From contig OZ220675.1 of NCBI GenBank assembly GCA_965116325.1, positions 449,138-513,137 of the forward strand: 64,000 bases of DNA, read 5' to 3'. Shown here piece after piece: positions 2,352 through 19,029 of the stretch (position 1 is its first letter; every line of letters starts with the position of its first letter). Under the pieces are notes generated by a model that was not told the DNA's origin, made no database searches, and saw nothing but the letters and a program-made list of their open reading frames with translations. The position numbers were made by a program, and so were the translations under genes. The stretch comes from Dehalococcoidia bacterium (GTDB lineage Bacteria > Chloroflexota > Dehalococcoidia > Lucifugimonadales > JAGWBF01).

Positions 2352-4829
2352 TTAGCTCTGCTCCCGTTCATGTCGGTTGTGCACATCCTCTATGGCCACA
2401 TCAAGGTCAGTCCATATCTGCTCCACCATGGAGCGGAGCCTCATGTTCTGGTAGGCACCCCAGACCACCATGGCAGGCAGCACCAGCAGAATGGCCACTA
2501 TGAGGGAATAAACGATGGTAATGGTCGCCGTGATGCCGAATTGCTGGGACGCCAGCAATGGTGAGGCAATCAGAACACCGAATCCGAAGGCTGTTGTGAG
2601 CGCGGAGCCCAGCAGCGCCGAACCCGTGGTTGCCAGCGTCTGAATGGCCGCCCTCTCCGGATTGCGCATCCGGGCGAACTCCTCCCGGTAGCGATGGATG
2701 ATGTGGATCGTGTAGTCCACCCCTATCCCTATGGACAGGGCTGTGATGATGGACGTGATCAGCGTGTAGGGGATGCCCAGGAGAGCCATCGTACCCAGTA
2801 CGCTAATGAGGACTAGCACGATGGGGCCGACGGCAACGAACCCCAGCGCAGGCTGGCGCAGCGTCACCCAGAAAAAGACCGCTAGGACGACGAAGGCCAC
2901 GGCAATGGTGGTGCCGATGGCTTCCGTTTGGCCGCTCTTGATCTGGTCTGTGACGGTAACCGCGACTATGGTCTCCGAGGTCACCGTGACCGCGCTGTCG
3001 TCCCCTTGCCAGAGGGCCTCTATGTCCGCCTGGAGCATCCTCGATTCCACAGGGTCGTCCTGGAATGTCGGGAACTGGAGCAGCATCGTATCGACGCCAT
3101 TGGGGTTGTTGATCAGGGAGTGCGCCAGGCTGGGTTCTCGTGCGATGAGCTTATCGACAAACTCCTGCATCAGCTCCGGGTGCAGCTGCAAATCAGAGGA
3201 GGCTTCCGTGAATAGGGCAGCCAACTCAGGGTCATAGTTGTCACCCGGCTCTCCGCTGTCGTTGATCCAGTCCCGTGCGGAAAGCTCGAAGGACCCCTGA
3301 ATCGGACCTGCAGCCGCGGGCGGACGGGTAGCTTCATCTTCGAATGCATTCGTAATGTCCCGTAGATTGAGGAGTGTGCGGCTTTCCGTGACTTCTGCCT
3401 TGATCAGCAAACTGGCAAGCTCAGTCGAGCCACCGACCGATGCTTCCAGCGTGTTCATGTCCTCCAGAACACTCCCACCTCTAGGCAGGACATCCTGAAT
3501 ACTGAACTCCGACTCCAACCCGGTCGCAGCATACCCAAGGGCAACCGTTGCAAGCAAAACTGCGACGAGGCTGGGCACCGGCCTGCGGGTCACCCATCTC
3601 CCTAGGAGCTGGGCCGCCTGTGGAATGCCGGGGAGGGCGTTTGAGATGGGCCGAGCGGGAGACAGAGCACCGCGGGCTTCCCGCCTCCGGTCGATGATCA
3701 TCCGGGCAGCAGGTAAGAGGGTTAGCATGACGATCAGGCTCATGCCTACGCCCAACCCCGCGACGATGCCGAAGTCGCCCACAACCCCGATGGGCGAGAA
3801 CAGGGTGGCCAAGAGGCTGACGATGGTCGTGACGGCAGCCAAGGTCAGGGGGACTGTAACGGTTCGCAGTCCGTTCCTGACTGCTCCTACCACGGGCTGC
3901 CCCTCTACTCGCTGTTCCCGGTAGTGGGAGACCGTCTGGATCGCATAGTCAACCGTCAGGCTGATAAGGATGACTGGCACCATAGCAGTGAGGGAGCTGG
4001 GAGGCCCTATCAGACCTATGGCGTTGGGGCCAAGCCAGCCTTCCGCCCCGATGATCCAGACCAACGAGATAATGAGTCCCCCCAGAGTGAGCAGCATGTC
4101 GGAAAGAGTGCGGGTGAAAAGCAGGAGCAGGGCCGCAATTAGTAGCAGGGCAAGGCCGACGAGCGGCGCCATGCCGCTTTCCGTCGCTTCCTTGTACTCA
4201 TCCTCGATGACCACTGGGGACAAGCTGCTGACATCCAGCGACCCCTCATGCTCCACGGCAAGCTCGTTGATGCTACGTTCAGCATCCTGAATTCGATCGT
4301 CGCCCGTATCCCGCAGCCGTATGTTGCCAATGGCGACCATGGTCCCGTCCGTATCGGTGCCGGTCAGGGCAGACAAGGCGCCCTGAATCTCCGGGATGCT
4401 GCGAACAGAGTCAATCTGCTCCTGGGTAATCGACCCAAGGTCGTCCCATTGGAGCGCAGCGCTGATAATGGACGAGGGCGCTATGACTGCATTCGACGGC
4501 GCCAGCAGTTCGCTTACGCCTGGATCGCTGACGGCGTCATTGATCAGGATAGCCATCTGGGAGAGGCCCTCAGGTGTGAGAGGATCTCCTCGGAAGAGCA
4601 ATGTTACGACCCTGATGTCGCCCGAGTCGCTGAAGGACTCTTCGATTTCGCCGGTCGCTTCGGCGATGGCATGTCCGGGAGGAAGGAAGGCTATGTCGGC
4701 CCCCTCGGTTGGCGGCGCGCGCCGGGCAGCACCTGCGGCCAGCACGACGGTGACCAAGAGGAGGACCAGGATCGTGACGTATGGACGGGCTGTGACCAGC
4801 CAGCTCAACCGATCAAGTAGGTTGTTCAT
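2352..4829 (-). CDS. RND-superfamily MMPL/HpnN-like lipid exporter
   Basis: 825 aa with two hydrophobic multi-helix bundles, each preceded by a large soluble loop. An MMPL/SSD-like GVDYTIHIIHRYREE lies in the C-terminal bundle, and the N-terminus is a typical MMPL anchor helix. Confidence 0.8.
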   Translation of the reverse strand: MNNLLDRLSWLVTARPYVTILVLLLVTVVLAAGAARRAPPTEGADIAFLPPGHAIAEATGEIEESFSDSGDIRVVTLLFRGDPLTPEGLSQMAILINDAVSDPGVSELLAPSNAVIAPSSIISAALQWDDLGSITQEQIDSVRSIPEIQGALSALTGTDTDGTMVAIGNIRLRDTGDDRIQDAERSINELAVEHEGSLDVSSLSPVVIEDEYKEATESGMAPLVGLALLLIAALLLLFTRTLSDMLLTLGGLIISLVWIIGAEGWLGPNAIGLIGPPSSLTAMVPVILISLTVDYAIQTVSHYREQRVEGQPVVGAVRNGLRTVTVPLTLAAVTTIVSLLATLFSPIGVVGDFGIVAGLGVGMSLIVMLTLLPAARMIIDRRREARGALSPARPISNALPGIPQAAQLLGRWVTRRPVPSLVAVLLATVALGYAATGLESEFSIQDVLPRGGSVLEDMNTLEASVGGSTELASLLIKAEVTESRTLLNLRDITNAFEDEATRPPAAAGPIQGSFELSARDWINDSGEPGDNYDPELAALFTEASSDLQLHPELMQEFVDKLIAREPSLAHSLINNPNGVDTMLLQFPTFQDDPVESRMLQADIEALWQGDDSAVTVTSETIVAVTVTDQIKSGQTEAIGTTIAVAFVVLAVFFWVTLRQPALGFVAVGPIVLVLISVLGTMALLGIPYTLITSIITALSIGIGVDYTIHIIHRYREEFARMRNPERAAIQTLATTGSALLGSALTTAFGFGVLIASPLLASQQFGITATITIVYSLIVAILLVLPAMVVWGAYQNMRLRSMVEQIWTDLDVAIEDVHNRHEREQS

Positions 4830-4960
4830 GCCGTATCCTTCGATCTAGGCAGGCACGAGAAGATGAAACTTCAACCTCTCGTCTCCCATGATGTGAATCA
4901 TCGCCTCCGCAACTGATAGCAAATTTAGTCTGCCTACTCTCCCATGTTCGGCCCGAGAAT

Positions 4961-6037
4961 TCATTGCGCAGGAACGCTCGTGGCATCCCGCAGCAGATGT
5001 TGCGATTCCTCCCCGGCCTCATAGAACTGGGCGCAATATGCTCGAAAGGGCATGATCTCCCCATCGGAGCGGCACAGGCGTGGGCGGGACCGGTAGCCCT
5101 TAAGGCTCCAAATGGCCATGTCCTGCCTAACGTCGTTGTCCTGCTGGGCCGCCACAAACCGGTTCATCAAGGGTGCACGGAACCTTGTTGGAAGGAAACC
5201 CAACCCCATAGTCCATCGCTTGGGGTTACGTATCTCCTTGACCTGAGTAGCCAGGGATAGGTCGATGTGGGTTCCATCGACGGGCGTGGCGAGCACCCAG
5301 AGCCTCAAATCCATTCCTATGGAACGCTCGTGAATCTGGACGAAAGAGTAGCCCAAGCCAAAGATGCGGGTCTTGGCGGAGATGTCCATGGTGAAAGTTG
5401 CAACCTTGGCAATCTTGCGGATGGTCTTGAAATCGAAATTGCTCTCCAGATATGGCCCGTCCACGTAGATGCGCCCGACGCGGCTTACGCTGTCATAGCC
5501 GTGAACGTAACGCAGGTGTGCCAGATCCACCGAGTTCTCCGTGGTGTCCTGGGGATGACCCGGGAATCGCATCGTCCTGACGCGTATGCTGCTCCAGCCG
5601 GACTGTTCGACGGGTTCGGCAGGCAGAGTCCATTGGACCGGACGTCCCCCGATGCCCCACCATGCAAAGATGAGACCAGCGATCTCCTGGGTCTCGAAAG
5701 TTCTCAGCCTGGCAGTCTTTGGGGGGTCGGCATATGGAGTAGCAACGCACTGGCCGGTGGTATCGTATTCGAAGCCGTGGAAAGGACACACAAGCTGTCC
5801 GCCCCGCACGAAACCCCCTGCGTCGGGGCCCAGGTAAGCCCCGAGGTGAGGGCAGTAAGCCTCGGCCACGCAAACGCTGCCGCTTCCGTCGCACCATGCG
5901 ACGACGTTCTCTCCCATCCAGGTCTTTGCAAGAACACCGGCCTTCAGTATGTGCTGACGGCTGGCGACAAAGTACCATCCTTCGGGAAACGCGGACGGCA
6001 GCTGCTCTTTCTCAGGCTTCCGTCGCTGGATCGACAT
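4961..6037 (-). CDS. Rieske [2Fe-2S] non-heme iron oxygenase, KshA/Neverland/SdmA-like
   Basis: Rieske ligands CPHLG...CPFHG and the mononuclear iron motif E-x3-D-x2-H-x4-H (ENSVDLAHLRYVH). I start it at ATG 6037 (ggtgaggagtctcaagcgATG). The listed 715-aa ORF extension overlaps the MFS gene in another frame. Confidence 0.8.
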   Translation of the reverse strand: MSIQRRKPEKEQLPSAFPEGWYFVASRQHILKAGVLAKTWMGENVVAWCDGSGSVCVAEAYCPHLGAYLGPDAGGFVRGGQLVCPFHGFEYDTTGQCVATPYADPPKTARLRTFETQEIAGLIFAWWGIGGRPVQWTLPAEPVEQSGWSSIRVRTMRFPGHPQDTTENSVDLAHLRYVHGYDSVSRVGRIYVDGPYLESNFDFKTIRKIAKVATFTMDISAKTRIFGLGYSFVQIHERSIGMDLRLWVLATPVDGTHIDLSLATQVKEIRNPKRWTMGLGFLPTRFRAPLMNRFVAAQQDNDVRQDMAIWSLKGYRSRPRLCRSDGEIMPFRAYCAQFYEAGEESQHLLRDATSVPAQ

Positions 6038-10660: not shown

Positions 10661-12376
10661 TTAGTGGTGTATTGCTGCCACTGCCCGTAGGCCGAATATA
10701 TCCTCCCTGGCGGGAAAGGCGCTGGTGTAGCCCTCGAAGTTATTGTAGCCCCCCTCCATCACACCCATCCCCAAGGGAATATGCCCGACACCTGCGGAGT
10801 GTAGGAGCTCGTGCACCAAGACCATCGGGAGATAGTATTGGGTCAGGGGGTCCTCCCGGGCCTCATTCCTGGAGCTGGTCCATTCGGTGACATCTCCAAA
10901 GTAGCCTCGCGGAGGGAACTGGATGTGCACATCCAGTAAATTGAAGTGGGGGAAGCGTGCAAGTCCTATCTTGGTGCAACCCACAGGCCTTTTGCCGTTC
11001 TCAGTCCCCCGGCAGGGCGGAAGCTTCTTATCCCCCCGGTACCCTCGCACCACCACATTCCAACCCACATCATCGGCGAAGGTGAAGCCCGTCCCTCCCG
11101 TTGTAGCATCAAGGGCCGTCTGCGCAATTCTCAGGGACTCGGCGGCTGTCGTCAGGTCCGGGATTTCAATGATCTCCCAATCGCGAGTCCAGTCTGCATG
11201 ATAGGTCACGGCGCGGTTCTTGTGATGCCAGTTCACAGGAATAACCCCGTTCACATCGAACTCGTACGTCTTGCCTGTTCTCTTGTGCTGGGCCTCAACG
11301 ACCATGCTGCCACCGGGGTACGAACCCAAAGCGCACCTGGCCAGGGTCATGCCTGTGACCTTCTTGGTCAGCCAGTCCGTCTCCGAAGAGAACCCATCAG
11401 CACACCCTTGGCCTTTCTCGATGAGGTACATTCCAGTGTTCCAAGGGTTGGTGTTCAGCTTGAACTTGAAGTCCGTGAACCTGTGGCTGAACCGGTCCTC
11501 CCTCTCATTGAGAAGGTCAAGGGTCAGAGTGGCGGGACTCTGCTCCAGCATCATCCAGCGACGGGCGCTCATATCCACAGTCCAGGAACTGTTGATGTCC
11601 AGCACCGTAATCGCTGCCTCGAAACGCGGAGGCGCTACCAGGAGAGGCACCGGAGTGTTCGCAGGTCTGCGAGTGTTCGTGGGCCTGGGAGTGTCCGTTG
11701 GGTCAGGGTCCCCATCATCGGGAGTAGCGGTCGGCCCAGGTGTGTCGGTCGGCACCGGCGTTTTCGTGGGCCTGGGCGTCGGAGTCAGTACGCAAGCGAC
11801 GCACGGCGTCGGGGGCTTAGCGGTCGGCGTCGGAGGCTCAGCGGTCGGCGTGGGCTGACACTCGCTTGTGCCAGGGCATGGGTCTTGAGTCGGCTCCGGT
11901 GTGGGTGAGGGAGTCGGTTGGCATGTCGGTGCAGTGTCCGAGGACCCGCAGGGCTCCAATGTCGGCTTCTTCTTGAACTTCACCGTTACCGAATCCGAGT
12001 TGCTGTTGTCGCAAAACTCTCCGCCACGCTCGGCAGTGACCGTGATGGTGGCTGTGTAGGTCCCTTCCGAGGTGACAGTTCTGCTCTTGCTGGTGTTCCC
12101 ATCATTCCATTCGAAGCTGTGATGCAGGAAGTGACCGCCCGGCATCGTGACCGTGGAGTGGGTGGCGCTGATCCTGGCGCTGCTCGTGGTCACATTGGAT
12201 ACCGATGCTGAGATAGTCGGCCTGGGCGGTGTTTCGCACGCCCATTTCTCCCACTCCCCGTCCCCTTCCGCCGTCACAGGCGGGGGATACAAGTCGGGTG
12301 TGGCAAGGCCGATGATAAGAAAGACCACCAGCCCTAAAAGCAAACAGGGCACACAGTCCATCCATGAAGCAGGCAC
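10661..12376 (-). CDS. membrane-anchored metzincin-like zinc metalloprotease with PKD-like domain and Pro/Thr-rich linker
   Basis: N-terminal TM helix, a long PT-rich linker, and a C-terminal HELLHSAGVGH (HExxHxxGxxH) followed by GMGVMEG, a possible Met-turn. It lies 10 nt upstream of the 8777..10651 gene. Confidence 0.6.
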   Translation of the reverse strand: MPASWMDCVPCLLLGLVVFLIIGLATPDLYPPPVTAEGDGEWEKWACETPPRPTISASVSNVTTSSARISATHSTVTMPGGHFLHHSFEWNDGNTSKSRTVTSEGTYTATITVTAERGGEFCDNSNSDSVTVKFKKKPTLEPCGSSDTAPTCQPTPSPTPEPTQDPCPGTSECQPTPTAEPPTPTAKPPTPCVACVLTPTPRPTKTPVPTDTPGPTATPDDGDPDPTDTPRPTNTRRPANTPVPLLVAPPRFEAAITVLDINSSWTVDMSARRWMMLEQSPATLTLDLLNEREDRFSHRFTDFKFKLNTNPWNTGMYLIEKGQGCADGFSSETDWLTKKVTGMTLARCALGSYPGGSMVVEAQHKRTGKTYEFDVNGVIPVNWHHKNRAVTYHADWTRDWEIIEIPDLTTAAESLRIAQTALDATTGGTGFTFADDVGWNVVVRGYRGDKKLPPCRGTENGKRPVGCTKIGLARFPHFNLLDVHIQFPPRGYFGDVTEWTSSRNEAREDPLTQYYLPMVLVHELLHSAGVGHIPLGMGVMEGGYNNFEGYTSAFPAREDIFGLRAVAAIHH

Positions 12377-12434: not shown

Positions 12435-12472
12435 CACAGAAAACTTTCGGGAACTATATACTTGACGATCCT
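12435..12472. repeat. left terminal inverted repeat of the IS1595-like element
   Basis: CACAGAAAACTTTCGGGAACTATATACTTGACGATCCT. The outer 8 nt and inner 24 nt are identical to the reverse complement of 14725-14760. Confidence 0.8.
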
Positions 12473-12932
12473 AAATCGTTCCCCTAGATACGAACCTCTG
12501 AAACTCGCCCTGGTCAAAGACGTGTAGCAACAGGTTCTTTCCGGCCTGTCCCTTCAGCCACATTTCCGCCCCTTTGGAGTAGCCCCCGCCGTCCAGCACA
12601 ACGATAGTCTGGTACCCGCCTTGCTGGATGTTCAGAACCTCGAAGGGGTACTTCTCATGCACGGTCCCGCCCGATGCTTGCCACTTGCACTGAATGACCA
12701 GGGCCTTCTCCCACTTCCGGGGATGGTAGAGGATGAAATCAACGCGACGTTCTCCGCCGTAGATGTTCCGCCCAACGATGCACTGGCGAGCATAGACGGG
12801 CTGACTGAGCTCTCGCATGGCAAAGAACAAGCTAGAGGGCCATATCGGTTCATAGCCGGCTTGCTGGAGAAGGTCTTCAACGAACCGCTCCAGCTTGTTG
12901 CCCGTCCTGTTGGCCGATACCTGCCTAGCCAT
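12471..12932 (-). CDS. putative type II restriction endonuclease (PD-(D/E)XK-like)
   Basis: 153 aa. A candidate catalytic core is ERRVDFILY...ALVIQCKWQ (D...QxK variant). The start overlaps the methylase stop by 8 nt, and the stop lies inside the left IR. Confidence 0.45.
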   Translation of the reverse strand: MARQVSANRTGNKLERFVEDLLQQAGYEPIWPSSLFFAMRELSQPVYARQCIVGRNIYGGERRVDFILYHPRKWEKALVIQCKWQASGGTVHEKYPFEVLNIQQGGYQTIVVLDGGGYSKGAEMWLKGQAGKNLLLHVFDQGEFQRFVSRGTI

Positions 12933-13770
12933 AGGTCGTAATCAGCAGTTCGCTTGCTGTCCCGCGCCCGTTGGTCTTGCAGTTGATATTCCTGGGTGCA
13001 GCAACATCGTGGATGATGAAGGGTGGGTTTCCGTACAGGCTGCGCATAAGCTCTGTGTCGGCGTTTGAAACCATCACCGAGGCGCCCAGCTTGTGCCACT
13101 TCAAGACAGCGTTCCTGAGTCGCCTCTGCTCATCCTCGCCGAAGCCGTCCTTCCCATAGCCTGCGAAAGTCCCATCGTAGGGGGGATCGCAGTAGATGAA
13201 GTCCCCACCACCAGGCTCTAGCTTCTCGAAGTCTCCGAAGGTGACGGTCGCCTTGGATAGCACCTTCCCTGCTTGGCGGATGTTCTCGGCGTCGCAGATG
13301 ACGGGATTCACATACCTGCCGATGGGAACGTTGAAGGCCCCGCTCTTGTTCACCCGGTACAGGCCGTTGTAGCAGGTCTTGTTCAGGTAGATAAACCTGG
13401 CTGCCACATCTACCGCAGCCTCTAGCCCAGTCTGTTTGCGCATCTGGTAGTAGTACGCCTTCTGGTGCTTCTGCTGGTGGTGCTCCAGGGAGGCGATCAG
13501 ATCCTCGGCTCGGTTGCGGACCATCTGGTAGGTCAAGGCAAGCTCGGCGTTCACATCGGACAACCGGGCCGATGTGATACGGCTGTCCAGGGCAAAGAAC
13601 ACAGCCCCTCCACCAAGGAAGGGCTCCCAATATGTCCCTAGGTCGTCGGGCAGGCGCTGGGCGATCTCTGGAATCAGTGTCCGTTTCCCCCCCGCCCACT
13701 TCAGGAACGGCTTGGCCCTGGCCCTAGCCAAGTACGGCTTCTCCGTGTGCTCCAGGAACCTATCGAACAT
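12925..13770 (-). CDS. DNA N6-adenine methyltransferase, Dam family
   Basis: FLKWAGGKR, FLGGGAVFF (FxGxG) and the catalytic DPPY (IYCDPPYDG). Confidence 0.9.
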   Translation of the reverse strand: MFDRFLEHTEKPYLARARAKPFLKWAGGKRTLIPEIAQRLPDDLGTYWEPFLGGGAVFFALDSRITSARLSDVNAELALTYQMVRNRAEDLIASLEHHQQKHQKAYYYQMRKQTGLEAAVDVAARFIYLNKTCYNGLYRVNKSGAFNVPIGRYVNPVICDAENIRQAGKVLSKATVTFGDFEKLEPGGGDFIYCDPPYDGTFAGYGKDGFGEDEQRRLRNAVLKWHKLGASVMVSNADTELMRSLYGNPPFIIHDVAAPRNINCKTNGRGTASELLITTYG

Positions 13771-14716
13771 TGGCGATCAGCTCCTTGTAGGGTAGGTGTG
13801 CGGCAGGGAGCATCCCGCTTGTCAGAAGGGCTGTCGATTCACCGCCTCGGGCAACGTTCTGACGGAAGGAGCAGGCATCCAGGTACTTCTGCGTGTGCTT
13901 GCGACTCCACCAGTGGTGCGTTCCTACAAAGGTTCGCTTCACCAGGGACCAGAAGCTTTCAACGCTGTTGGTGGTGATGCCGTCCCTGCTGTACTCGCCT
14001 TGGGAGTGATTGATGCGGGAGAGCTTGTAGAAGCCTTCCAGGGCATTGTAGCTGTGGCTTTCGTCAGCGTTCAGATGAGAGCCGAGGGCGACGTTGCGGA
14101 TGACATGGCCGGTTACGTGCTCGGCTGTCGGGCTGGGAACCTTGTACGCTTTGACCGCCCCGCCCCTTTGCTTCATACCGAAGGCCACGGCCTTGGTCTT
14201 GGAGGAACCGAGGCCCTGCGTGCCAGAGGTCCGCTTGCTAGCGTGCTTGTTCTTCTCTTTCCCGCCGATGTAGGTGTCGTCTATTTCCACGTCGCCATCC
14301 AGCATGATGTCCACTCCCATCAAGGCTGCGGCGTTCTGGATGCGCTGGATCATGTACCAAGCCGTCTTTTGGGTAACCTTGATGTCGTGGGCTAGCTGGA
14401 CGCTGGAAATGCCCTTGCTGTGCTCCGTCACCAAGTAGACCGCTGCAAACCACTTGGGCAGCATCTTGATTGGGCTGTCGGAGAAGATGGTGCCGGTGAT
14501 GATGCGGAACACCCGCTTGCAGTCCGAGCACTTGTGCCGTATGCCGTCTGTGTAGTGCTGTATCTTCCCGCAGCTACCGCAGTGGGGGCAGAAGGCCCCG
14601 TTAGCCCAGCGCACAGCCTCAAGCTGTTGAAGGCAGGCTTCGGGGGTGCTGTACTTCCTGGTAAACTCTAGTAGGCTCACTGCTACACTCCGTTCTTGAT
14701 ATTGGGAGTATAGCAC
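13760..14716 (-). CDS. IS1595-family transposase
   Basis: N-terminal zinc ribbon CPHCGS...KCSDCKRVF, followed by an ISXO2-like DDE domain (VEIDDTYIGGKEKNKH). The stop overlaps the methylase start by 11 nt. Confidence 0.85.
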   Translation of the reverse strand: MLYSQYQERSVAVSLLEFTRKYSTPEACLQQLEAVRWANGAFCPHCGSCGKIQHYTDGIRHKCSDCKRVFRIITGTIFSDSPIKMLPKWFAAVYLVTEHSKGISSVQLAHDIKVTQKTAWYMIQRIQNAAALMGVDIMLDGDVEIDDTYIGGKEKNKHASKRTSGTQGLGSSKTKAVAFGMKQRGGAVKAYKVPSPTAEHVTGHVIRNVALGSHLNADESHSYNALEGFYKLSRINHSQGEYSRDGITTNSVESFWSLVKRTFVGTHHWWSRKHTQKYLDACSFRQNVARGGESTALLTSGMLPAAHLPYKELIANVR

Positions 14717-14724
14717 ACATTTTA

Positions 14725-14760
14725 AGGATCGTCAAGTATATAGTTCCCAAACTTTCTGTG
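14725..14760. repeat. right terminal inverted repeat of the IS1595-like element
   Basis: The reverse complement reads CACAGAAAGTTTGGGAACTATATACTTGACGATCCT. It lies 9 nt upstream of the transposase start. Confidence 0.8.
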
Positions 14761-15516: not shown

Positions 15517-15559
15517 CGAGGCCGCAACTCTTTACGTAGCCGAGGCCGCAACTCTTTAC
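15517..15559. repeat. two tandem copies of a 19-bp motif upstream of the transposase gene
   Basis: cgaggccgcaactctttac appears twice with a 24-bp period. A 10-bp-stem hairpin (aacatggaac...gttccatgtt) follows at 15599-15625. Confidence 0.7.
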
Positions 15560-15655
15560 ATAACCCGCCCGACCTTTTAGACTGGGGCCGACGGCGAAAA
15601 CATGGAACGTGTCAGGTTCCATGTTCTCTAGCCACCAAGGAGATAGACCCTCCCG

Positions 15656-16876
15656 ATGGCTTGGTACAAATCTACCACAGGTCTGCTACCCCTTCAATCC
15701 GACAGGGTCAACACCCTCCGCGCGATCTTCGCGTCCCTCGATGATGAAGCTCTTGTCACCCACCTGAAGCAGCATCGCCACATGGGACGGCACGGCTACC
15801 CGGTACGGGCGATGTTCCGGGCATACCTCGCCAGCTTCGTTCTCAACCTCCGTCACACCAACGACCTGATTCGAAGGCTTCAGGACGACAGAAACCTGCG
15901 CCGGATCTGCGGGCTGGGGAATACCCTTCCCCACCGCACCACCTTCAACCGGTTCATCCGCACCTTGGGCCGTCACGCCGACTTGGTGGAAGAGGTCCTG
16001 AACAGCATCACCGGCGAGCTCCGCGAACTCATCCCCGACCTGGGGGCTGAGGTGGCGGTGGATTCGACCGCAGTGCGCACCCATGCCAACCCACATCCAC
16101 GAAGGCGCGGGCTTTTCGACCCGGAAGCATCCTGGACAGCCAAGAACAGCGCCCACGCCCCCGAAGGAAAGGAATGGCACTACGGCTACAAACTGCACCT
16201 GCTGGCGGACACCGTGCACGGGATTCCCCTGGCACAGATCGTGACCACCGCCAAGCGAAACGACTCTCCCTACCTGCCCAGGCTTGCCGACAAAGCCCGG
16301 GCACAGCTCCCATGGCTGGACATGAAGGCGCTCATGGCCGACAGAGGCTACGATGCTTTCTCGAACCATCAGTACCTTGTGGACAAAGCCATCTTGCCGG
16401 TGATCCTGATGAAGAGAGCCCCAAACACAAAGAACGGCCTTATAGGGGGCATCTACACCGCCGAGGGTGTCCCAACGTGCGTGGGACAGGTTCCGATGCA
16501 GTTCATACGCACAGACCCGGAGAAGGGCCACCTCTACCGGTGCCGGGGTTGCCATCTGGCGGACTCCACCAAGGGCATGACAACCCACTGCCAGGACGAG
16601 GTGTGGGAGGAGCCCTCGACGAACATCAAGGTTGTGGGTGTTCTCAGCAGGGCAAGCCCGGAATGGAAGGCCCTGTACGCCAAGCGCTGGTGTATCGAGA
16701 GGGTGTTCAAGAGCATGAAACAGGGTCGAAGGCTGGAGGCCCACTGCGTGAAGGGGCTAGCCCACATCACCCTGCACTCCCTGATGTCCACCCTGGCCTA
16801 CTCAGCAACAGCTCTGGTGAAGGCCCGGGCCGGGTCCCGCAGGACTATGCGCTGGATGGTGGAGAAGGTGGCTTAG
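15656..16876 (+). CDS. DDE transposase, IS4/IS5/IS1182-type (DUF772-like N-terminus plus DDE_Tnp_1)
   Basis: Candidate DDE residues lie in VAVDSTAV, LMADRGYD and YAKRWCIERVFKSMK (a Y-x2-R-x3-E-x6-K signature). Element ends were not identified. Confidence 0.8.
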   Translation: MAWYKSTTGLLPLQSDRVNTLRAIFASLDDEALVTHLKQHRHMGRHGYPVRAMFRAYLASFVLNLRHTNDLIRRLQDDRNLRRICGLGNTLPHRTTFNRFIRTLGRHADLVEEVLNSITGELRELIPDLGAEVAVDSTAVRTHANPHPRRRGLFDPEASWTAKNSAHAPEGKEWHYGYKLHLLADTVHGIPLAQIVTTAKRNDSPYLPRLADKARAQLPWLDMKALMADRGYDAFSNHQYLVDKAILPVILMKRAPNTKNGLIGGIYTAEGVPTCVGQVPMQFIRTDPEKGHLYRCRGCHLADSTKGMTTHCQDEVWEEPSTNIKVVGVLSRASPEWKALYAKRWCIERVFKSMKQGRRLEAHCVKGLAHITLHSLMSTLAYSATALVKARAGSRRTMRWMVEKVA

Positions 16877-18171: not shown

Positions 18172-19029
18172 TTATTCCCTCTCGGCACAATAGGCTTCGA
18201 CAGGCTGGTACGCTTCGGTGAAGCCGGTCACATCGAACTTGGCCCGGTACCATCCGGCGTCCCCATCGACAGCAACCTCCAGGTGGTCGTGCTGGCCCAA
18301 TGTCTCGATGAACTGACGCTCGGCCGCACGGTTGGCGCTGTACGGAGGGGACAGAAGGTAGCCTATAGCCTCGTGCGTCCTCCAGGTAGAAACGACTGCG
18401 GGGCCCTCGTCCCAAGTGAACTGCACAGATTGATCGCCCTCCAGGGTCACATATGGGGGCAAGTCCAAGGTGACCGATATGTAACGGCTCCGGGGAGGCG
18501 TTGGGGCGAAGCAGGTGACGCCCAATTCCACATCGCCGACCAGATCTGGTGTTTCATAGGCGTCAAGGTTGACCGACATCCACGCGAGGGAGCCAAGGTC
18601 CGCATCGTTTGCGTACCAGTCACCGGTGCCGACTTCTGACGGTTCTGTGACTATACGGGTGACTTCGACTTCACGAGTGACTTCTACCTCGCGAGTGACT
18701 TCTACCTCGCGGGTGACTTCGACCTCACGGGTAGCTTCGACTACACGGGTGATTTCTACGGACACTCCCTGGGGGCCTGCGGGTCCTTGCTCCCCTTGAG
18801 GCCCCTGTGAGCCGGTGTCCCCTTGCGGTCCTTGCCCCCCTGGCAGCCCTGTGGCACCCGGTACACCTTGTTCCCCTGGCTCACCCTGTGGACCTTGTAT
18901 TCCAGGTTCCCCTCGTGCGCCCTGCGGTCCCGCAGGTCCGGGAGGACCTTCGATACATCCCGCTATTGTCACCATCAAAAGTGACATTAGAATGGTTCCT
19001 GTTCCGAGAAACCTCGGTACAATGTACAT
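18172..19029 (-). CDS. collagen-like triple-helix-repeat lipoprotein
   Basis: Lipobox IAGC, then about 20 consecutive G-X-Y triplets ([16 protein letters not shown]...), then a tandem hexapeptide (EVTREV, about 5 copies) and a globular domain of about 150 aa. Confidence 0.75.
18659..18760. repeat. 18-bp tandem repeat, about 5.5 copies
   Basis: Units of gtgacttc(g/t)acc(t)c(a/g)cg(a/g)g encode the EVTREV repeats of the collagen-like gene. Confidence 0.8.

Follow-up and report, generated by a model that had tools for sequence, protein, structure and literature searches.

A compact IS1595-family insertion sequence with a putative Type II restriction-modification module in a Dehalococcoidia contig

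Restriction-modification (R-M) systems have long been argued to act as selfish mobile elements, and they are commonplace on mobile elements. Among insertion sequences (IS), the IS1595 family includes transporter IS (tIS) with passenger genes, established by Siguier, Gagnevin and Chandler in 2009 (as cited in PMC3129680 and PMC2853133). R-M genes within inverted repeats (IRs), with an 8-bp duplication recognized against an empty site, were reported in Xanthomonas oryzae and Neisseria gonorrhoeae (Furuta, Abe and Kobayashi 2010, PMC2853133). The Neisseria unit contains a degenerate gene with a COG3677 transposase motif, and an R-M gene is truncated (PMC2853133). These units are single cases, in which the transposase is absent or apparently inactivated, and the authors did not identify the mover (PMC2853133). 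Here we describe an element located at 12449-14748 of a 64-kb window of contig OZ220675.1, from a Dehalococcoidia bacterium. The window is the whole stretch of DNA that was analysed (64,000 nucleotides), and all coordinates are positions in it. Judged from its sequence and its relatives, the element is probably an intact, autonomous tIS of the IS1595 family with a complete and compact Type II R-M module. The original prediction for this locus described an unusually compact selfish cassette. The unit stands. It is less exceptional than was implied, because passenger-carrying IS1595 elements and transposon-like R-M units have already been described.

The element measures 2,300 bp. We set its ends at 12449 and 14748 because the termini of its relatives are exactly GGGAA.../...TTCCC and because an 8-bp direct repeat is flush with both tips. 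A perfect 24-nt IR, GGGAACTATATACTTGACGATCCT, is present at 12449-12472 (plus strand, nuclease-proximal, with GATC at 12467-12470) and at 14725-14748 (minus strand, transposase-proximal, with GATC at 14727-14730). It does not occur elsewhere in the window (two matches, versus none in 100 shuffles). The target-site duplication AAACTTTC abuts both IR tips, at 12441-12448 on the left and 14749-14756 on the right, with 8/8 positions identical. The original prediction had reported no such duplication and had given IRs of 38 and 36 nt. Relative to that prediction, the left end moves 14 nt and the right end 12 nt towards the centre of the element. Of the identities then noted, the inner 24 nt hold as the true IRs. 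The outer 8 nt (CACAGAAA / TTTCTGTG) belong to the duplication plus the target, and they are identical because the insertion target is itself palindromic. The outermost bases, CACAGA (12435-12440) and TGTG (14757-14760), are parts of this target and lie outside the element. The pre-insertion site is an imperfect palindrome, CACAGAAAACTTTCTGTG, and the empty site of the window copy corresponds to TATCACAGAAAACTTTCTGTGGCCAG.

The relatives agree with these ends. Perfect 8-bp duplications, flush with the tips, are present in 31 of the 42 related elements having both ends located. Moreover, three copies of a 70%-identical element in one metagenome show 99.9-100% mutual identity over exactly 2,305 bp. 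Their shared identity begins with GGGAAC and stops with GTTCCC, in three different contexts. The 8-mers duplicated by the family elements have 14% GC, versus a mean of 57% in the flanks. Therefore, AT-rich targets are preferred. The window copy is located between two divergent genes, and neither is interrupted. Here, the element entered an AT-rich 8-mer and duplicated it.

In some genomes or samples, the flanks do not stay with their copy. Two loci of one genome (L023 and L025) present reciprocally swapped flanks. Likewise, the right flank of L002 is the left flank of L003, and the left flank of L051 is the right flank of L056. This trade of flanking 8-mers implies recombination between element copies, by inversions or other rearrangements, and it accounts for elements that have no duplication. 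The absence of duplications in L001 and L002 was considered as an argument against the proposed ends. We rejected it, given the flanks exchanged between copies (L002/L003).

Between the IRs there are three head-to-tail genes on the minus strand, as originally predicted. Their open reading frames (ORFs) span 13760-14716 (transposase), 12925-13770 (methylase), and 12471-12932 (nuclease). The first two overlap by 11 nt and the last two by 8 nt. The stop codon of the nuclease gene (12471-12473) reaches into the left IR at its inner edge, also as described before. The earlier family calls are retained. They now rest on PF12762, PF12760, and NF033547 for the transposase, PF02086 and TIGR00571 for the methylase, and PF20472 for the protein of 153 amino acids (aa).

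The transposase is encoded at 13760-14683 on the minus strand, with 307 aa counted from a GTG codon. The open frame extends to 14716. The GTG at 14683 is the likely start; it is preceded by GGAG, and a 306-aa database entry agrees with it. The protein matches PF12762 at 7.8e-36 (123.8 bits, cut-off 27), the zinc ribbon PF12760 with 37 bits (cut-off 25.4), and NF033547 with 169.5 bits (cut-off 75). In 31 relatives, no change is seen in the N-terminal CxxC...CxxC zinc ribbon or in the residues D135, D207, E242, and K249. These residues form a DDE triad with a lysine at E+7. A DDE domain and a zinc ribbon above the curated thresholds, short IRs, and the 8-bp duplication place the element in the IS1595 family. 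In ISfinder, the ISNwi1 subgroup of this family has the IR tip 'ggnnatTAT', a DDEK motif, and passenger-bearing members of 1.75-4.75 kb. We presume that the window element probably belongs to this subgroup, as its IR tip GGGAA(C/T)TAT and its DDE-K fit these characters.

A promoter of the sigma-70 type is predicted at 14707-14735 on the minus strand. It consists of a -35 box TTGACG, a 17-nt spacer, and a TG-extended -10 box TATACT (10/12 matches). The -35 box is inside the transposase-proximal IR, and the GATC at 14727-14730 overlaps its final base. A -10-like hexamer at the matching spacing is present in 30 of 33 transposase-proximal IRs, versus one of 33 nuclease-proximal IRs. For this reason, a single promoter probably drives all three overlapping genes. 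Transcription from it would read through the transposase, the methylase, and the nuclease.

The methylase gene (12925-13770, minus strand) encodes a 281-aa N6-adenine methyltransferase of the Dam family (D12 class, DPPY), with GATC as predicted target. It matches PF02086 at 3.2e-58, with the DPPY motif present, and TIGR00571 with 263.7 bits (cut-off 114.85). Among solved proteins it is closest to M.DpnII-1 (3.6e-54) and then to E. coli Dam, and the alignments to both are full-length. In the alignment, K24, N135, L137, R139, P149, R152, and Y153 correspond to Dam K9, N120, L122, R124, P134, R137, and Y138. We take these to be the GATC-reading residues of the published Dam-DNA structure. The TIGR00571 match and the conserved GATC-contact residues indicate a member of the Dam family. 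On the other hand, the methylase obtains 139.7 bits with the E. coli Dam equivalog NF008152, which demands 441. It is therefore no orthologue of host Dam. Because the protein is closest to M.DpnII-1 and the Dam contact residues are identical, GATC is its likely target, and the enzyme would modify this site.

The last gene (12471-12932, minus strand) encodes a 153-aa PD-(D/E)XK protein of the PDDEXK_11 family (PF20472, 3.8e-28), a predicted small Type II endonuclease. It shows weak matches to Mrr_cat and to the DpnII catalytic core. Its family has proteins of about 150 aa and some 1,040 clusters at 50% identity (E <= 1e-3). The residues E15, D65, Q81-x-K83, E93, and E98 are invariant or nearly so. 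The AlphaFold (AF2) model is confident (pLDDT 86, pTM 0.83) and presents an alpha-beta-beta-beta-alpha-beta core, in which strand 2 bears D65 and strand 3 bears Q81 and K83. In Foldseek, ranks 1, 3, 4, and 7 are the restriction enzymes BstEII, MspJI, PspGI, and EcoT38I. All these matches are weak (E >= 8.5e-3, TM < 0.5). They support a restriction-endonuclease-like fold class, and no subfamily can be named from them. Together with the conserved catalytic residues, the predicted fold bears out the nuclease-like nature first proposed for this protein. Furthermore, 24 of 50 homologues match the DpnII family (PF04556) at E <= 0.01, the best at 2e-6, in the catalytic core only. The locus presents the parts of a Type II R-M system: methyltransferase motifs, and an adjacent, co-oriented gene whose product has a nuclease fold and conserved residues. 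Most probably, the protein is a miniature Type II endonuclease with GATC specificity. It would cut unmethylated GATC as a dimer.

Several observations weigh against this reading of the element. In the PDB, the nuclease has no significant match by sequence, profile or fold. The window protein stays below the threshold of PF04556 (17 bits versus 23), and its match is confined to positions 144-218 of the 278 in the profile. From these comparisons it appears as a remote, shortened relative of DpnII, outside that family. Gln81 occupies the middle acidic position of the classical PD-(D/E)XK motif. Therefore, catalysis would need E93 or E98 instead. A literature search by family name found no characterised member of PDDEXK_11. 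Neither the nuclease nor the transposase is represented by a model in PADLOC, and for the nuclease this counts here. The reconstructed empty site has no match in the metagenome contigs. Finally, solitary homologues of the nuclease (about 48% identical) occur in metagenome-assembled genomes (MAGs) of Poribacteria (L080, L082, and L091, around 4788-5459). At these three loci no adjacent methylase or transposase was detected, and a conserved 550-aa protein adjoins the nuclease. A nuclease without an adjacent methylase is unusual for a restriction enzyme, unless the methylase is elsewhere in the genome. The GATC counts were listed on the same side. This site is not depleted in the element (8 observed, 8.4 expected) or in the window (221 and 228). 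These counts are neutral and neither support nor contradict restriction. Separately, the IR-like matches AAGAATTATAAAGGCGAYGATCC in the Poribacteria loci were discarded as chance matches within coding sequence.

The weak structural matches also leave room for another function of the 153-aa protein. Linked to the methylase, it could be an endonuclease that acts in repair or nicking, similar to Vsr or MutH, or it could be an accessory of transposition similar to TnsA of Tn7. It is about as small as Vsr, and the overlap of its gene with the methylase gene resembles that between vsr and dcm. The PD-(D/E)XK fold is common to MutH, Vsr, and TnsA, and the subfamily is not assignable from the weak structural matches. 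Nevertheless, the sole family-level sequence signals are from restriction enzymes, namely DpnII in the homologues mentioned above and Mrr_cat. The methylase-nuclease pair is found in neighbourhoods of defence type, with Abi, McrBC, and BREX-like genes, and no linkage to MutS or MutL was seen. The TnsA-like role was rejected. Sister IS, whose transposases are related and whose ends are the same, move without the nuclease, which puts it outside the transposition machinery, and the pair exists without any IS. Overall, we consider a repair or accessory function very unlikely, and a restriction endonuclease is the reading we retain.

To place the element in its family, one genome per species was scanned for relatives of the 153-aa protein. 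The census gave 118 confirmed matches, and the best 80 were examined. In about 45 of these 80 loci, an IS1595 transposase and a Dam-family methylase are directly upstream, in equal order and spacing. The methylase adjoins the nuclease gene in about 70 of them. The hosts include Dehalococcoidia and Caldilineaceae (Chloroflexota), Vicinamibacterales and Marinacidobacterales (Acidobacteriota), Alpha-, Beta-, and Gammaproteobacteria, and Bacteroidota. Many host names are typical of marine-sponge symbionts. Some genomes have multiple copies: at least five in a Nitrosomonadaceae MAG (OZ252054.1), and two each in two others. For the window element itself, look-ups of the exact transposase and nuclease sequences matched no record.

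We compared the divergence of the three genes. In 31 elements, the protein identities are correlated between transposase and nuclease (Mantel r 0.79) and between transposase and methylase (0.86), with p <= 0.0005. The non-synonymous/synonymous substitution ratio (dN/dS) in unsaturated pairs is 0.02-0.27 for all three genes, and 0.02-0.17 for the nuclease. All three genes are under purifying selection. With the shared gene order and the correlated divergence, it follows that the trio is an old, co-evolved transposing unit. Its spread among many uncultured bacteria from several phyla means that the pairing is a successful mobile lineage and no accident.

These data bear on a simpler explanation, in which an R-M pair became nested by chance between ordinary IS ends, or the IRs belong to a larger element. 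The window holds only one copy of the element in its 64 kb, and the empty site was not found in the metagenome contigs, as would suit a chance event. However, identical architecture, matching ends, and flush 8-bp duplications recur in over 40 elements from at least five phyla. The three genes co-diverge, and multi-copy genomes exist. Chance nesting is already refuted by the census, the flush duplications, and the co-divergence, and we leave it practically no probability. The original view of one IS1595-type unit, with a Dam-family methylase and a small PD-(D/E)XK protein as its only cargo, is thus backed by the family census. Two ways in which that view could have failed had been named with it. 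Relatives end at the same tips, which speaks against IRs of a larger element, and other copies do carry the same passengers.

Some members of the family are longer than the window copy. A fourth ORF of 63-87 aa, between the nuclease gene and the far IR, makes them 2.5-2.8 kb (L019, L021, L028, L029, L034, L047, L050, L057, L077, L078, L085, and L086; around 5440-5730 of each locus). There are at least two Cys-rich types, one with a CPxC...CPxC zinc ribbon and another with a 'GRHxCxxCAYExG' motif. None of the types of this ORF matched a Pfam family. This small ORF, which the window copy does not have, could be a regulator of the R-M cargo. In three other loci, inserted extra DNA results in elements of 4.3-5.4 kb (L060, 1101-5440; L040, 1718-7068; L054, 740-5658). 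L060 keeps a perfect 8-bp duplication, and an insert of about 2 kb splits its methylase from its nuclease.

The methylase-nuclease pair also exists apart from the element. Many loci have it without transposase or IR, and L014 keeps a 3' transposase remnant beside the pair. In the plasmid collection there was one distant match only, and in the phage collection there was none. This match is on plasmid p1 (124 kb) of Alicyclobacillus sp. TC (L215, 3162-4471). There, a nuclease homologue with 32% identity starts 3 nt after a Dam-family methylase and adjoins an Abi-family gene. In addition, a 432-aa protein (P0243) has a D12 methylase domain (17-253) joined to a PDDEXK_11 domain (287-411). It may be either a natural methylase-nuclease fusion or a read-through of overlapping genes. 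The pair without IS, the Alicyclobacillus pair, and P0243 together mean that methylase and nuclease are a functional module by themselves.

On the side of the transposase, a sister group shares the 18-nt IR tip GGGAAYTATATACTTGAC. It comprises at least 120 loci from soil and freshwater metagenomes. Among the matches listed, the transposases are 29-48% identical, and many elements of 1.9-2.5 kb have perfect 8-bp duplications and unrelated passengers. In two of them, a C5 cytosine DNA methylase is the sole passenger (L161, 67-2308; L198, 2649-4596). The group also includes a transposase-less cassette of 808 bp with a 251-aa ORF (L118, 50-857) and a miniature element of 232 bp (L208, 104-335). 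The simplest history would be one capture of a free-standing R-M pair by a passenger-prone IS1595 clade. Under this proposal, the pair would first have been free-standing and was then captured once. The cargo would aid the persistence of the element by post-segregational killing, phage defence, or both. In return, the transposase would lend mobility to the R-M system.

The IRs of this lineage contain the predicted target of its own methylase. In 64 distinct IR sequences, positions 1-3 (GGG), 7-8 (TA), and 19-22 (GATC) are invariant or nearly so. At each end, 32 of 33 elements have GATC at positions 19-22, and it is kept where the adjacent -35 bases drifted, for example in TAGGTGATCC and AAGGCGATCC. 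Over the -35 box, the GATC of both IRs may make promoter strength, end recognition, or both sensitive to the methylase. A further proposal is more tentative, and we hold it to be rather doubtful. The methylation state may set transposase expression and the activity of the ends and may autoregulate the R-M cargo, with the nuclease punishing the loss of the methylase. The sites would be unmethylated on arrival in a naive cell, hemimethylated after replication, and fully methylated at rest. If this were true, the element would combine a portable, self-encoded Dam control of the IS10/IS50 type with an addiction module, and few known restriction enzymes would be as small as its nuclease.

The same observations can be weighted in another way. 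Methylase and IR GATC would then be mainly an epigenetic switch of transposition, like that of IS10 and IS50, and portable to hosts without Dam. The nuclease would be secondary. It would enforce retention of the methylase or act on unmethylated or hemimethylated GATC at the ends, and defence would not be the main function. In its conservation, the IR GATC equals the terminal GGG and exceeds the -35 box that it overlaps. It persists at the nuclease-proximal IR, where the -10 box is found once in 33 (30/33 at the other end). Among the matches listed, the sister group, with at least 120 elements sharing the 18-nt tip, has GATC at positions 19-22 in none of about 135 IRs and carries no methylase or nuclease cargo. 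The probability of a lineage-specific 4- or 5-mer spelling GATC there by coincidence is about 1-2%. Nonetheless, positions 19-23 are conserved in sister lineages too (for instance, TCCC at both ends), and recognition by the transposase could suffice. Methylase-nuclease pairs outside any IS are common. Among the elements with the trio, the most divergent are L085 and L086 from Bacteroidota MAGs, which have other IRs, GGTAAYTATATTC...TTTAACCC (around 3015-3070 and 5750-5790). These lack GATC and the TTGAC of the -35 box, and L085 has two tandem left-end copies. The missing TTGAC fits the differing promoter type of Bacteroidota. The match between GATC and methylase is an association with one evolutionary origin, and this is a caution for any methylation control. 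We regard a switch as the main function as unlikely, and we keep the R-M module as the preferred reading of the cargo.

The rest of the neighbourhood presents other features. The product of the gene adjoining the element (10661-12376, minus strand) has 571 aa and combines a PKD domain, a long linker rich in Pro and Thr, and a motif of the HExxH type (HELLHSAGVGH). At 0.9 kb from the IS, on the plus strand, there is a gene for a 406-aa transposase with DUF772 and DDE_Tnp_1 (15656-16876), which we interpret as being of the IS5/IS1182 type. A 24-nt tandem duplication (15517-15564) is located just upstream of it. A collagen-triple-helix-repeat protein is encoded at 18172-19029 on the minus strand.

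Compared with the known IS1595 tIS, the element has the same zinc-ribbon and DDE(K) transposase, IRs beginning with GGGAATTAT, and an 8-bp duplication. The passengers are inside the IRs, the size falls in the range of 1.9-2.6 kb, and sister elements have other passengers, including C5 methylases. It differs in that the passenger would be a complete R-M module of two genes, which share one operon with the transposase and are coupled to it in translation. Moreover, GATC, the predicted methylase target, is located in the lineage-specific portion of both IRs.

The DpnII/MboI-type systems resemble it in the methylase, which is closest to M.DpnII-1, in the weak matches of the nuclease to the DpnII core, and in the order of methylase and then nuclease. 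However, the nuclease has about 150 aa, versus a profile of 278 positions, and is below threshold. There is a single methylase and no controller protein, and the system is carried in an IS. The DpnII system has a second methylase. With IS10/Tn10 and IS50/Tn5, whose transposition is under Dam control, the element shares a GATC that overlaps the transposase promoter, inside the terminal transposase-binding sequence. IS10 and IS50 rely on the Dam of the host, whereas the window element encodes a Dam-family enzyme itself. The hosts belong mostly to phyla that would not be expected to have a resident Dam. It may be a case of an element that regulates its own transposition with its own methylase.

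Like the Xanthomonas and Neisseria units, the element has R-M genes bracketed by IRs and an 8-bp duplication. Unlike them, it has an intact transposase that is kept by purifying selection, and it is multi-copy and widespread across phyla. The minimal form of transposase, methylase, and nuclease thrives in 2.3 kb, unlike the published transposase-deficient cases (PMC2853133). It offers a natural system for asking how an IS profits from addictive or defensive cargo. Likewise, it is a source of candidate restriction enzymes of about 150 aa with a predicted GATC target. The lineage differs from the described systems in four respects. It appears intact and able to move by itself, it is widespread and occurs in multiple copies, the family of its nuclease is uncharacterised, and it has GATC in its ends and promoter.

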